Positions 3,001 to 8,044 of a stretch of 8,044 bases of DNA are shown here, one piece after another. The DNA comes from Arcobacter sp. (lineage in GTDB: Bacteria; Campylobacterota; Campylobacteria; Campylobacterales; Arcobacteraceae): positions 1-8,044 of the forward strand of contig CBFIGT010000107.1 of NCBI GenBank assembly GCA_965662175.1, written 5' to 3'. Made by a program: the position numbers. The first letter of the stretch is position 1. Every line of letters begins with the position of its first letter.

Positions 3001-6000
3001 AAAGCACAAGAGTTATTGGATAAGATATTTATAAAAAAAGAGAGTTTTAATCTATTTGTAAAAGGAACAATTTTTCAAATAAATGTATGGAAAGCAATTT
3101 TAAGTATAAAAAGTGCAGATACATTAACATACTCAGATGTAGCCCAATTAGTAAACAAAACAAAAGCAGTGCGAGCAGTTGCCAGTGCAATTGGCTCTAA
3201 TCATATAGGTTTTTTAATCCCTTGCCATAGAGTTATCTCAAAAAGTGGAGCAATGGGTGGATATAGATGGGGAATAAATAGAAAAAAAGCTATTTTGGAT
3301 TATGAAGAACATAATTAAGATTTATATGAGTAAAAGAGTTCAAGAAAAGATTAAAGAGAAACATTACAATTTTTTCATTAAGAAAAGAGACTTTAAAAAA
3401 ATACTATAAAGATAAATCATTTAAGTTATTTGATAAGGGTTTTGAAAATATATTAGAAGAGTATTTAAACTAAGTCCAGTGACCAAACTGGAATCTCTTA
3501 TCCTCGTCAGCCAAAACTGTTACGGGCATCTATCACCATGGGCAAGTTTCCTATGCTGTAGGCGTATGGAAGGTCAATCTCCACCTCTTAGTTCTAATGC
3601 CGCAATTATAACTTATTAATCTAGTAAAGTCAATTTCTATTTTTTTGACTAACTCTTATTGTAAAAGCTTATTTTTGTCAAGATTTATAGCTATCCTTAT
3701 AATCTGAACTTGAAGTGTGCAGGGTGATTTCATTAATTAAATATTTTAACAATAATCAAACTTTTATTTTTGTATTATATTTTTCTATCAAAAATCAAAA
3801 ATGATAAATAAAATTAAAAAAACTAAAAGTTAAAATTCCGAATTTAAGGACAATAAATGTCAGTATTATTAGAAATGTCTATGTTTTCTAATTATACATT
3901 TTTTTTAATCTCAAATTAGAAAAGTCCTTAAAGTCGAACTTTTAGTTTTAAAACAGTAGAAATGAATGTATCACTTTTATGTATTAAAAATGATAAATAA
4001 TTATAGTAAGTTTTATCTTTATTACTAATTGTATTTTAACTTAACCATGATAATTTTTTCTCCTTTTGTAAATTAAGTTTAAAGCTTTAATCTAAATGTT
4101 GTTGATGCATCAAAAATACTATAAAAATAGTATCCAATTGTTAAAATTTACATACATAATGTAAATTCATGTCCTCTTTACTTAAAACCGATTAAATTCT
4201 ATTTTACTTCATAATATACTCCTTTCAAAAGCTTTTTTATATTTTATTTTACGCGTATGAAAGAATTATATACTTTTTGAAAAATTAATCCAGTGCGAAA
4301 TATGATATTCATTAATTTTATAAAAATTTTTACTTATTTTTGACTTCGGTGACACATTATATAAAGTAACTCAAGAGCAAAGACTCCAAGCTCTAAAGAG
4401 CTTTTCGTCTTAGCAAATCAGAAGATATGTTTTCCATATCAAGAGAAATAACACTATCTAAAAAACTATCACTAATAAATGGAAACTGGACTAAACTTTT
4501 TTCACTTGTTATTCCATCTTTATAGATTGCTCGACCTTTAGAAAAATCTTGAACTTCTACCCATGTAATGTTTTCTCGAATATTATCTTTTAAATCAATT
4601 AGGTTAATATTGTAATCAGAAGAAGTAGATAATAAAACCCTTGAATTTATATTGTTAATCACCGAACTTGGTAAAACACTCGCATCCATTTTTTGGGCAA
4701 ATAGAAACAGAAAAATAGATGAACTCCTACCTTGCATTGCAATCAATGCTAATTTGTTAAAAATCTCTTCTCTTAGATTTTTATCAGGATATACACTAAT
4801 AGCTCCAATTTCATCAAATATAAGTAGGGTAAGCTCTTTTGTCTTTCTTGTATTGGTTCTTAGCATATCTTCTTGTGTAGTTTTTAAATCTTCTATAACA
4901 GTATCTAAGAAGCTATTTAATTTGTAAATATCCGATACAAATTGAACTTTATCAAGTTTTTCAAATCTCTTTAGTTCAACTCCACCTTTGAGGTCTACCA
5001 TATACATTTTTTTAATACTACATAAATTGAAAAGGAAATTAATATTTAACATTTGCATGAAATTTGATTTTCCACTACCAGAACTTCCTACTATTATATG
5101 ATGGTCTAAGGAATTTAAATCTCTATATAGTAATCCCTTTTCATTCATTCCTAAAAACAACTGATTAGGTTTAAATGGACTTCTATCTACTTCGTAGAGT
5201 TTTGGTAGCTTGTAGAAGCTTAGAACTATATTTTTGTCCTTTTTATGATAAATATTAACTTCATATCTTTTATCTATCAAACCTAAGAAGTGTAAAATTT
5301 GTTCTGTATTTTGTTTATAGTTATCTATATCAATTGCAACGAAATTTTTGTATTCAAGCTCAAACCTATCTAAATCCTTGCATAAAATCCTTTCAAGTAC
5401 CTTTTTAGACCTTATTTTTCTAATAGCTACAAATCTATCTAAAAATAAATCTCTTTGTGCTCTATCATCCTTAAAATTGTTATGTAAGTTCAATGAATAA
5501 GGTAAGATAATATATTTCCAATATTTAATGTAGAAATATAATCTTTCAATTAAAACAATAGTGTATAGAAACATTAGTATATGAAGATTGTTCATAAAAG
5601 AGATATTTTGAATATAAATTAGTAGTGTGTAAATGCTGGTACTAACCAAGCCCCAAATAATGAGGCTTTTAAAAAAGCTAATAATTCCATAGAACATGGC
5701 TTTATCCTTTGATTATTAGCTCTAATTGTGTAAAATAGAGTTTCCCCTCGTAAGAGCTTATATTTACTGGTATTTTCACATTTTGACCCTCTTTGATACT
5801 TTGAATATCATTCTTATCAGTCATTTTAACCTTTTGAATATCTATTGTTCCATCCTCTTTTTTATTTAAAAATTGAGCATAGATAGTTTCTTCCTCTTTG
5901 TATGTTTTTTTTGCTACTGCATAAATGCTTCCAAGTAGTACAAGTTTTGTATTCATCTTAAATCCTCCATGATTAGATATTTTTCTTTTCTATAGGTGTA

Positions 6001-8044
6001 GTCACCTATGAGAAAAGTTAAGCTATCAATACGATAGCCACCGTTACTGGTAGGAGTTACTGTTTTAAAGTATTTAATGAAAGAGTTTTTAATATCTCCA
6101 AATTGTTTAACAATCGTTTGAGTGGCTTTTTTAATAATCTTTACTTTGTATATGTTCTTAAGAATAAAGTAAAAGATATTAATGCCCCTATCTTTTGCTT
6201 TTTGGAGTATTGAAGCTTTAGTATCACTATCTAAGTTATGGTAAATATTTCTATAATCTTCTAAACTCAAATCAAGGTTTGAGGTTGTCACTTGACGAAT
6301 TTTATTTTTTCGCTTCCATCCATCATATAATCTAATAGAAAATGCATCTACATCAATAGACTTAGTAATATATTTCATAATGTACTTAGAAGCTCTTTTA
6401 ATGCCAGTCTTTGACCTACTTGTTTCAATTTCTTTTAGTTCATCATCTATAAGTTGAAAGTCCACTTGTTTTAGATTGAACTCTTCTTTGACTTTTTCAA
6501 ACTTAGCTTTAACTACTTTGATATCTGATTTTTCAACAAAAAAAAGACAATGAATATGGGGTACTAAAACTTTTGTCATCTCAAAAACCTTGATAAACAT
6601 AAGTTCATTAACTGACCTTTTAACCCTTTTATAGAAAACTCTGTAAATATGTTGTAAATGGTCATAACCATACTTTATAGAGCTTTTTAAGTCATTAAAG
6701 ATAAAAGATTTATTCAATGATGTATAAAGCCTTTCATCCTTATAGCTAACGGATTGAAAAGGATAAAATCTTTCATCAAGAGTGATAGTCAAAAAAATTG
6801 GGACAAGTCCTTTATCCTTTGCTAACTGCTCGATACAATACACTTTAGCTTCTATGCTTTTAGAATACTTCTTATAATGATTTTCAAAAGTGTAAGATGG
6901 TGTAATAAATTCACCAGTTGAAGACTTTACAAACTGTTTGTTTTTGAAAAAGCTTTGTTGCTTATGCTCTTTTTCTAAACTTAGTCTATAGTAATAGTCT
7001 CTAAGAGCTTTATACTCTTTGAATAATTTTGTGTTTTGAAGTCTTTTATTAGCATATATCTCTTTCATTTGTTCCTCCTATGCTAATAAATAGAAGTTTT
7101 TGAAAGAAATCGGACTAATTTACAAAAAATTCATAATTTATTTAGTAAAATAACTTATAAATTTTTTTAAAGGTTAGCTATGAAATTTTTAAAAACAATT
7201 TCAATGATTTTAATGATAATCTTATTTACAGCTTGTGTGGGTGGAAAAGTATATGTTCACTCGAACTATTCACCACAAAGATTTGCATATGATAAAGCAG
7301 TTTGTAATAATTTTGCTCGAGGTTCTTATGGAAATATTCCATATCAGAATATACCTTCTTATGATAATAAATATAATGTTTCAGGGTATGTGAACAATCA
7401 ATATTATAGTGGAACAATAACACAACAACCAACAATGCAACAAAGTATGAATAATATTGCAATGAGTGTTGCAAATATTGTACATCAAAATAGACTTGAA
7501 GAAGCATTTGATGCATGTATGTTCCAAAAAGGTTGGACTTTGCAAAACAACAATATTAGACCAATTTTTGATGAAGATGGCTTTGATGGCTCTGGATATA
7601 ATAAACAAGGCTTAGACAGAGATGGTTTTTATGTAAATGGTTTTAATAAATACAATATAAATAAGTATACAAATACAAAATATGACAAAAATGGTTATGA
7701 TGTAAATGGTTATGATAGAGATGGCTATAATATAAATGGTTATGATAGTGATGGCTATGATAAAAATGGTTTAAATACATTAAAATATACTAAAGATGGT
7801 TTTAATGAAGACGGTTATGACAGAGATGGATATGACAGAGATGGATATGACTTTGATGGTTACAACAGAGACGGCTATGATAGGAATAATGTTCATATGA
7901 GTGAGAAATTTAAATTAAATGGATAAAAGTCATAAATTAGAAAAGTATAAAGCAGAACTACAAAAGTGGGTTAATCAACATCAGTATCAACATAATGAAG
8001 ATTTAGAGTTATTGGGAGTGTTAAAAATTCTGTGTCAATCTGAT

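Follow-up and report, generated by a model that had tools for sequence, protein, structure and literature searches.

The 8,044-nt stretch of DNA analysed here (the window) very probably carries a small integrative mobile element of an Arcobacter-like bacterium. The element encodes an HUH Rep, an SSB-fold protein and a TcpA/FtsK-like membrane ATPase, and does not encode an exit channel. The four ORFs reported by the first-pass annotation, at 4393–5697 (434 aa), 5702–5956 (84 aa) and 5953–7068 (371 aa) on the minus strand and at 7180–7926 (248 aa) on the plus strand, are present, and its reading, a mobile element of rolling-circle type that is integrated and has a single FtsK-like pump, is supported.

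PMC3548315 and PMC12857230 describe TcpA-type coupling proteins and TraB-type pumps as restricted to Firmicutes and Actinobacteria. The occurrence of a TcpA/TraB-like architecture in Campylobacterales with hardly any sign of an FA-type helper suggests that a different channel is used, or that none is needed. Since no exit channel is encoded, movement between double-membrane cells becomes a testable question, and a four-gene element in culturable, non-pathogenic hosts makes transfer by a lone FtsK-like protein with an RCR-type Rep, as well as the choice between single and double strand, directly testable.

Extent, target site and cargo of the element

The element had been taken to start at 3319, but its left end lies near 3866. 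An att core was identified at 3866–3886 (plus strand), which corresponds to codons 4–10 of the host gene for a thiamine-binding protein (PF01910), matches the start of this gene in 5/5 congeners, and is copied at both ends of a 5735-nt element contig from run X1. The P-type (integrase-side) arm, at 3739–3865 (plus strand), gives the target gene a replacement start, with its ATG at 3857; on the run X1 contig, 3752–3886 is present at the right end. The non-coding P' arm (3887–4392) is covered by run X1 at about 96% identity, and throughout the gap at 3319–4392 the longest stop-free frame is 57 codons, as annotated earlier. Only 3 reads of an RNA run aligned. The element's left neighbours are two histidine kinase genes and an ogt gene of 178 aa; among 12 loci of relatives, ogt is 276–285 aa in 11 and 239 aa in one. 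Unlike the window copy, the target site is flanked by a GGDEF gene in 5/5 congeners.

Neither ends nor integrase were visible to the first-pass annotation; the att core has since been found with run X1, and a candidate integrase comes from a second contig, C218. Positions 3794–3870 are identical to the end of that contig (77-nt overlap) and 3739–3793 are diverged. From this overlap we infer that the tyrosine integrase on C218 belongs to the element. It has Lys at the positions of canonical catalytic Arg residues and gave no Phage_integrase match at 1e-3, suggesting that this copy may be impaired. Close homologues (E ≤ 1e-40) were absent from 150 family genomes. By eye, 3966–3990 resembles repeats upstream of the C218 integrase gene, and both are possible arm-type sites.

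At the right side, an ORF beginning at 7919–8013 (plus strand) is broken by the end of a multicopy insertion sequence (8014–8044, plus strand), which coincides with the assembly break. The same end, which we take to be IS256-like, occurs on 6 other contigs and is followed on C158 by a transposase-like frame; a target-duplication search did not locate the right junction of the insertion sequence. The secreted repeat lipoprotein described previously (7180–7926, plus strand, 248 aa), with Cys19 after a hydrophobic leader and 15-nt/5-aa Tyr-Asp-Gly repeats, is indeed present. It is strain cargo: it has no BLAST match in 15 related loci and is missing from the 96%-identical run X1 copy. Pfam, PHROG and NCBIfam gave no match to it. 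Cargo in the family is often anti-phage (CBASS, Hachiman, restriction-modification, AbiTii and GmrSD), suggesting that the family spreads phage defence.

Core proteins and their distribution

The membrane-anchored ATPase (4393–5697, minus strand, 434 aa) consists of two N-terminal helices, an alpha domain and a motor, with the Walker A motif at 204 and the N-terminal hydrophobic segments as annotated, and matches Pfam FtsK_SpoIIIE (2.6e-11) and PHROG 1358 (5.8e-34). It ends 231 aa past Walker A and has no gamma/wHTH domain, its predicted structure showing two short helices beyond the motor and then the end. The best match of the model is pCW3 TcpA (Foldseek ranks 1–6; Z 28.5, rmsd 4.5, 334 residues aligned), nearly tied with FtsK (Z 27.4). 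Nine of 10 family rows have 208–237 aa past Walker A, in line with the 234 aa of Tn916-like Orf21 and not with pIJ101 Tra (332 aa) or host FtsK (309–344 aa). A quick tree places the family on a separate branch, not nested in TcpA, based on 27 rows with only 3 TcpA-type references, long branches and SH-aLRT support only; three rows in which a regex did not find Walker A were dropped from the tree and length set. Plasmid and phage collections yielded only distant Firmicute or actinobacterial matches to the ATPase.

The 84-aa protein (5702–5956, minus strand) is SSB-like with an OB-fold; its model (pLDDT 90.3) best matches SSB, Rim1 and PriB (Z 9.9, rmsd 3.1, 83 aligned). It is encoded ahead of the ATPase, an arrangement also seen for YdcP/HelP genes and Orf21, and a dedicated SSB-fold gene at this position points to a single-stranded DNA substrate.

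The 371-aa protein (5953–7068, minus strand) is an HUH rolling-circle initiator and putative relaxase of the Phage_GPA type, having the HUH motif at 170 and YIMKYITK at 229 as previously noted and matching Phage_GPA (5.9e-10), REP_ORF2-G2P (4.5e-7) and PHROG 91 (4e-5). H171, H173, Y229 and Y233 are invariant in 11/11 aligned sequences. No match to this Rep was found in the plasmid or phage collections or among PDB sequences. Its nearest relatives that are not linked to FtsK-like genes belong to elements that carry TrbL/VirB5 or MobV-like genes, the MOB labels of three loci (L145, L146 and L148) being assigned by eye with no confirmation from Pfam.

ATPase homologues were found in 14 of 400 genomes of the order (about 3.5% of the Campylobacterales sampled). 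The proposed confinement to Campylobacterales holds largely (12 of 14 GTDB loci), though not strictly. Of 15 loci, 11 have a conserved, uninterrupted run of Rep, ssb and ATPase genes, 13 have ssb and 13 have an integrase-cluster gene. Direct repeats bound 8 of the 15 loci, giving elements of 5.5–11.5 kb at tRNA-type 3' ends; the relatives' target sites are tRNA or tmRNA 3' ends. In two small circular contigs (L144 and L142) the module lies beside a Rep3-type initiator and is without an integrase, so the HUH protein there need not be the replicon. No T4SS or capsid genes were found in family elements, and Pfam families of VirB and other MPF proteins gave 0 matches among the 95 non-core proteins of 16 related loci and C218 (with the window copy assembled up to the insertion sequence). 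No description of this element family was found in the open literature, the scope of the search being articles outside subscription journals and without supplements, and the available text of PMC11531552 does not mention 'FtsK'.

Relation to known systems and mode of movement

The closest known kind appears, by analogy, to be the streptococcal IMEs, which, according to the available text of Coluzzi 2017 (PMC5357655) and Guedon 2017 (PMC5704250), combine TcpA with putative relaxases of RCR-initiator type (Rep_trans/MobT, Rep_2, PHA00330 and Viral_Rep). Judged against these accounts, the present family likewise has its own tyrosine integrase and att repeats (the integrase of the window copy being the putative one on C218), a putative relaxase related to RCR initiators, as suggested by the HUH motif and two Tyr, a TcpA/FtsK-like ATPase, and no T4SS of its own within the 95 non-core proteins scanned; sizes of 5–18 kb, att repeats often at tRNA ends, and tandem accretion are also shared. 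It differs in its Gram-negative hosts, its own SSB gene, the separate ATPase branch and several unrelated integrase types, an FA-type helper was not detected, and the window copy targets the 5' end of a gene. The Phage_GPA/REP_ORF2-G2P Rep family does not appear in Table 1 of PMC5357655, and its relaxase role is putative. A small ssDNA-binding gene directly before a two-helix FtsK-like ATPase is also found in Tn916/ICEBs1 (HelP(YdcP)-Orf21/ConQ-MobT) and pCW3 (TcpA, the best structural match), and in the Tn916/ICEBs1 module an RCR-type nickase adjoins the ATPase; however, Tn916, ICEBs1 and pCW3 encode a full FA-type T4SS, and their relaxase is Rep_trans or MobM, not of the HUH GPA type.

Tentatively, as the leading reading but one that may well prove wrong, we regard the element as a TcpA-type mobilisation module that borrows a foreign channel, like the streptococcal RCR-relaxase and TcpA IMEs. 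The tyrosine integrase would recombine the element into the host PF01910 gene, within its first codons, and a fresh ribosome-binding site and start carried by the element would let the target gene survive insertion. The excised circle would be nicked by the two-tyrosine HUH Rep, driving rolling-circle strand displacement, and the displaced single strand would be coated by the OB-fold protein. A membrane hexamer of the FtsK/TcpA-like ATPase may then act as coupling protein for the Rep-linked strand and hand it to a channel encoded outside the element. In the available text of PMC5357655 and PMC5704250, both the borrowing of a channel by streptococcal TcpA IMEs and their mobilisation are themselves proposals, and the TcpA/FA helpers that they are proposed to need are described as absent from Gram-negatives. 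In favour of the mobilisation model are the contiguous Rep, ssb and ATPase genes, the repeat-bounded relatives, the best structural match to TcpA and the Orf21-like length past Walker A. Against it, the search for FA-type VirB4 (AAA_10) gave 2 weak matches in 401 genomes of the order, neither in a carrier, PF03135 VirB4 matched 0 of 10 carriers, and an AICE-like element of Streptomyces is laid out alike, with an equally short Tra. The near tie of TcpA and FtsK in structure, the lack of nesting in TcpA and the possibly impaired C218 integrase also count against it.

Since FA-type helpers were barely found, a self-sufficient single pump of the AICE or Thermus TdtA kind deserves consideration, although we think it rather unlikely. 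The ATPase alone would push DNA across the inner membrane, Rep and SSB would merely amplify the excised circle, and exit might use a host secretin, vesicles or cell contact, with uptake perhaps by natural competence of the recipient. Like AICEs (pSAM2 type) and the TraB plasmids pIJ101/pSVH1 (PMC3429521), the family combines an integrase, an RCR Rep and a single FtsK-like protein without a T4SS, and the Streptomyces element shares with it a small ORF, an FtsK-like protein of about 440 aa, an RCR Rep and an integrase. The FtsK-like fold, the lack of any channel gene in the 95 element proteins and the absence of VirB4 (PF03135) from 10/10 carriers fit such a pump, as does the position of Rep beside a MobV-like gene in sister elements, where Rep may be a pure replicator and the ATPase may replace Mob. 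However, the ATPase lacks the C-terminal DNA-recognition (wHTH) extension of pIJ101 Tra (231 vs 332 aa past Walker A), which is not decisive since a short AICE-like Tra of similar length (L185, 239 aa) also lacks it. No 8-mer occurs more than twice in 3887–4392, so this stretch shows no sign of a clt-like array (four-fold AT-rich 8-mers inside genes look like chance), and conserved Spd-like membrane genes were not found. The family also differs in its SSB gene and in its diderm, non-mycelial Campylobacterota hosts, in which two membranes have to be crossed, whereas AICE transfer is described as linked to hyphal growth (PMC3429521). AICE/TraB systems are characterised by actinomycete hosts and by the transfer of dsDNA. 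The earlier claim of single-translocase transfer thus stands as to the single-pump gene set, not as to the transfer mode, and its preference for an AICE/pIJ101-type element is not established, since streptococcal TcpA IMEs are defined by these very genes and the ATPase model is nearest to TcpA. Its novelty outside Gram-positives is weakened by Thermus TdtA/ICEth1, for which the available text of PMC5365140 describes T4SS-free, ATPase-driven DNA donation in a Gram-negative. ICEth1 is similarly tRNA-integrated, with one DNA-pushing ATPase, restriction cargo and no T4SS; however, ICEth1 requires NurA and a restriction enzyme and its circle apparently does not replicate, whereas the Arcobacter element has Rep and SSB and a TM-anchored ATPase of FtsK/TcpA type. 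It is conceivable, if doubtful, that Campylobacterales own a T4SS-independent DNA-transfer route, a GPA-type Rep/SSB chassis fitted with three exit modules (inovirus morphogenesis, MobV-/TrbL-type mobilisation and a lone FtsK-like pump), the lone pump carrying anti-phage cargo without a helper. The pump form would be integrated or plasmid-borne, its DNA probably pushed out for uptake by competent neighbours.

An inovirus satellite or atypical filamentous-phage derivative, in which Rep and SSB play the parts of gII/gV and the ATPase, anchored by its N-terminus, passes an ssDNA circle to the coat and secretin machinery of a helper inovirus, is improbable. The Rep family, the small ssDNA-binding gene and a tRNA-targeting tyrosine integrase are shared with Campylobacterota inoviruses (proposed Amplinoviridae) as described in the available text of PMC11531552 and PMC6813254, the latter also giving an N-terminal TMD on pI in 30% of inovirus-like species. 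Of 40 further Rep loci, 23 carry secretin and/or Zot clusters (inovirus-like prophages of the order), two genomes (G009 and G155) hold both FtsK-linked and inovirus-like kinds, and in one locus (L141) a hydrophobic ORF of 51 aa separates ssb from the ATPase gene. Nevertheless, the family lacks the small single-TM coat proteins, pI/Zot ATPase and secretin of inoviruses, which the same approach recognised in true inovirus-like loci. No conserved coat-like ORF was found in 12 elements, 3/3 candidates being antisense ORFs that overlap ssb; the ATPase has an alpha domain and is of the FtsK/TcpA kind, not a Zot; and no ATPase relative was detected in IMG/VR by a pattern-based scan reaching close relatives only, nor a Rep match in phage records. 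Moreover, two quick trees with SH-aLRT support only, one after removal of two long-branch rows, separate all 18 FtsK-linked Reps from all 23 inovirus Reps (SH-aLRT 99 and 100). A prophage remnant, once held to be as likely, is therefore unlikely. Slimmer still is the chance that the ATPase serves intracellular maintenance only, helping to partition the excised circle or plasmid when cells divide, with passive spread by transformation or transduction. The FtsK-like motor, its presence on small Rep3 plasmids and the unsuccessful helper search agree with this, but Walker A/B and the Arg finger are intact in chromosomally integrated copies across 7 families, always adjoining ssb/Rep, and elements with Rep, ssb and integrase also persist without the ATPase.

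A structured RNA and a pseudogene left of the element

The G+C-rich island (3472–3605), earlier counted as part of the element, is a separate feature, being located to the left of the att core and missing from the run X1 element. Its G+C content of 47% is reached by only 0.08% of the genome's 134-nt windows. From the alignment of its homologues, it appears to be a conserved structured RNA of about 141 nt without an Rfam match, encoded at 3468–3593 (minus strand) with a TTGACT-17-TATAAT promoter at 3633–3605; it is 141–142 nt in relatives, with one stem about 12 nt longer than in the window copy. Folding of single sequences gave no significant signal (z −0.02 and −0.84), the structure being visible in the alignment only. 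As noted before, Rfam offers no match: four at E 0.3–9 were all far below gathering scores, and none exceeded them in the window or 4 homologue loci, so that tmRNA, 6S and other Rfam RNAs were rejected. DNA searches gave one 40-nt partial match and 11 short A+T-rich matches in 120 family genomes, and nothing meaningful in 5 congeners. Convergent with the RNA is a pseudogene (3327–3471, plus strand), with an internal deletion and a frameshift, of a protein of about 130–140 aa; its stop codon and the terminal stem of the RNA overlap. Four intact homologues had no match in Pfam; ESM Atlas features point to PBECR3 (0.87, with 149 shared features), a lead that the product may be PBECR-like, and the RNA is possibly an RNA antitoxin.

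The Rep-ssb-ATPase module and its distribution

The four ORFs reported in the first-pass annotation, with their motifs and family matches, are all present as described. Three of them form the module on the minus strand: an FtsK/TcpA-like ATPase (4393–5697, 434 aa), a small protein termed ssb (5702–5956, 84 aa) and a Rep of the HUH/Phage_GPA type (5953–7068). The 84-aa protein, whose profile was matched by 135 representatives at 50% identity, is predicted to adopt an SSB/PriB-like OB fold (pLDDT 90). Walker A, the Walker B DE and the Arg finger of the ATPase are kept in all 12 aligned sequences, and its model predicts two N-terminal helices, an alpha domain and the motor, without a gamma domain; the structural matches of this model are headed by pCW3 TcpA (Z 28.5), with FtsK second (Z 27.4). 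A quick tree sets the ATPase family on a branch by itself (SH-aLRT 98). TcpA, Orf21, actinobacterial Tra and host FtsK all fall outside this branch, and the tree does not resolve their order. The HUH motif and both tyrosines of Rep are kept in 11 of 11 aligned sequences.

A search for ATPase homologues (E ≤ 1e-25) was positive for 14 of 400 other genomes of the order, representing 7 families. Among the 15 fetched loci (L063 being cut by a contig end and L070 plasmid-like), Rep, ssb and ATPase are contiguous in 11, ssb is present in 13 and an integrase-cluster gene in 13; Rep is partial in L069, and divergent HUH-like proteins occur in L071 and L072. Direct repeats of 17–35 nt delimit 8 of the 15 loci, seven overlapping a called tRNA 3' end and the eighth (L059) a tRNA-like end uncalled by ARAGORN, and a tRNA or tmRNA gene adjoins five further loci. 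The repeat-bounded elements are 5.5–11.5 kb long with G+C below that of their flanks. Integrases of the family fall into at least two unrelated size classes, and the variable cargo includes CBASS, Hachiman HamA, restriction-modification, AbiTii, GmrSD, TIR, Abi_2 and Sel1 lipoproteins. For example, a CBASS-like operon (cyclase, patatin, E1-E2 and JAB; L062:1565–5569) and a Hachiman system (HamA and helicase; L095:4085–7365) adjoin the module. A second integrase lies beside the element at L059:3900–12300 and L095:10370–14146, which suggests tandem accretion at the same site.

The first-pass annotation had described this element type as confined to Campylobacterales. This is a fair approximation, since 12 of the 14 loci in a GTDB-wide scan are from Campylobacterota, but it is not proven: a full module was found on a 4.9-kb contig (29% G+C) of a possibly misbinned 'Bacteroidales' MAG, and one ATPase in Clostridia, with neither Rep nor ssb downstream and only 200 nt of upstream view. 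Distant ATPase relatives are named from Methyloligella and Ca. Thioglobus. The element family is real and apparently undescribed so far, a literature search having found no description of it in the text available. It works like known IME/AICE-type elements, a likeness in way of working; it is a demonstrated member of neither type.

Relatives of Rep and the possible mode of transfer

The Rep profile had matches in 85 of 401 genomes. All 11 of the top-scoring matches are ATPase-linked. Forty of the ~90 remaining matches were fetched, favouring high scores and long contigs, and comprised 23 inovirus-like loci (secretin and/or Zot clusters with small membrane ORFs), 3 ATPase-linked loci, 3 with a MobV-like gene recognized by eye and 11 others, one of which carries TrbL and VirB5. 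The MobV-like proteins, missed by Pfam, accompany a GPA-type Rep in integrated elements (L145:8868–10073, L146:4088–5416 and L148:8964–10352), as do TrbL and VirB5 in another (L152:4607–6866). Inovirus-like prophages sharing the Rep family are common across Campylobacterales (L147, L149, L150, L153, L154, L156–L158, L161–L164, L166–L168, L170–L172, L174, L176 and L178–L180), with no Zot gene detected in several that have a secretin. Five minimal loci (L151, L155, L159, L175 and L177), consisting of Rep, a ~90-aa protein and an integrase, have Reps nested among those of inoviruses and are candidate inovirus satellites.

Two module-bearing contigs are circular, L144 (G300:C172, 5.5 kb) by a 127-nt terminal overlap and L142 (G359:C20) by a 1917-nt overlap. 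Both contain, beside the module, a second initiator, which matches Rep3_N in L144 (1e-11) and has a similar counterpart lacking a Pfam match in L142, and neither has an integrase; the module therefore rides both integrative elements and plasmids. Together with L070, they are small circular or plasmid-like forms with a Rep3-type initiator, GPA-Rep (578 aa), ssb and ATPase, all three lacking an integrase.

Rep, ssb and ATPase probably constitute a transfer module. The best reading, which we hold tentatively at somewhat under an even chance, is that they act as relaxase, SSB and coupling protein through a borrowed channel, as has been proposed for the relaxase and coupling protein of streptococcal IMEs (PMC5357655 and PMC5704250). 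This reading is weakened because no helper was found: PF03135 was detected in 0 of 10 carriers, and AAA_10 gave weak matches in just 2 of 401 genomes, the B. subtilis control being positive. The failure to find a helper agrees with transfer in which the ATPase moves DNA by itself, and a Streptomyces AICE-like element has a similar layout; however, a TraB-type tail and a clt array were looked for and not seen, and we regard this single-pump alternative as rather unlikely. All 18 ATPase-linked Reps cluster with the MobV-like and TrbL elements, apart from all 23 inovirus Reps (SH-aLRT 99, or 100 once two long branches were dropped), and VirB, MOB or capsid families were matched by none of the 95 non-core proteins scanned, one JAB protein matching a tail PHROG weakly; that the element is an inovirus satellite seems improbable. 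An ATPase serving maintenance only is slightly more improbable still.

Integration site and integrase

Four public sequencing runs were compared with window 1200–8010; their read depth is not usable as copy number, and the decisive record came from one run, X1. Its 5735-nt contig consists, in order, of 9 foreign nt, window 3866–7118 (124 differences over 3253 nt), 2314 other nt, window 3752–3886 and 24 foreign nt. Because of this order, the core 3866–3886 is seen to be duplicated at both element ends. In 5 of 5 congeners, the foreign flanks plus core correspond to the start of the protein encoded by a PF01910 thiamine-binding gene, which sits after a 478-aa gene with GGDEF-like matches. Window 3857–3886, preceded by a ribosome-binding-like site, supplies a replacement for the first ten codons, and therefore integration at the 5' end restores the gene. 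The PF01910 gene and its four usual neighbours are absent from this assembly (94%-complete, 249 contigs). The remainder of the element is unseen because the window, which is all of contig C107, stops in the end of a multicopy insertion sequence (8014–8044) that recurs on six other contigs.

Contig C218 of the same assembly encodes a DUF6538-type integrase (561 aa) with 21–28% identity to those of related elements, and its right end is identical to window 3794–3870 over exactly 77 nt, an overlap length that recurs in several contig pairs and is likely the assembler word size. Judged from sequence, C218 would be either the right end (attR) of the window's element or its circle junction, which fit equally, and we infer that the 2314-nt segment of X1 contains the integrase. 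The C218 integrase has Lys at what we take to be the positions of the canonical catalytic Arg residues and may be impaired; no close homologue of it (L073:218–1900, G000:C218) was found in 150 family genomes. An imperfect inverted repeat, spotted by eye on either side of the core (3836–3852 and 3925–3941), possibly provides sites for the integrase or an accessory factor.

The left junction of the window reads arm, core, arm instead of host, core, arm. In the simplest reading, it may reflect tandem insertion beside an older island that has lost its integrase, carrying the two kinases, ogt and the RNA module. The ogt product (2782–3318, 178 aa) lacks the N-terminal part, versus a 276-aa Ada-type protein in congeners. 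The break of the X1 contig falls at the point at which the presence of both empty and filled sites would split a 31-mer graph, a hint of excision or loss of the element in that sample.

A structured RNA in the G+C island

The G+C island (3472–3605) lies left of the att core. Searching with a 20-nt pattern gave 17 metagenome loci, of which 16 were judged homologous by eye, and the window was aligned with 14 of these 16, leaving out one near-duplicate and one shortened copy. The alignment yielded a fold of several stems in which 98% of cells are paired; 16 of 40 pairs show two-sided changes, more than in any of 500 shuffles or any slid control, the caveat being that one alignment of related sequences served both to derive the structure and to test it. 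This conserved ~141-nt RNA, with strong covariation, has no Rfam match. The observation covers window 3327–3633, with the RNA and the frame convergent to it, and L189–L197, L199–L205 and L030. On the minus strand it is preceded by a near-consensus promoter, the promoter total of the region being at chance level.

In 12 of 16 homologues, a stop-free frame of 126–192 codons ends in the RNA closing stem, and the window keeps a deleted and frameshifted remnant of it. The convergent ORF (~130–140 aa), with its stop codon inside this stem, has no Pfam match and a PBECR-like lead, nothing firmer. We would guess at a possible toxin with an RNA antitoxin.
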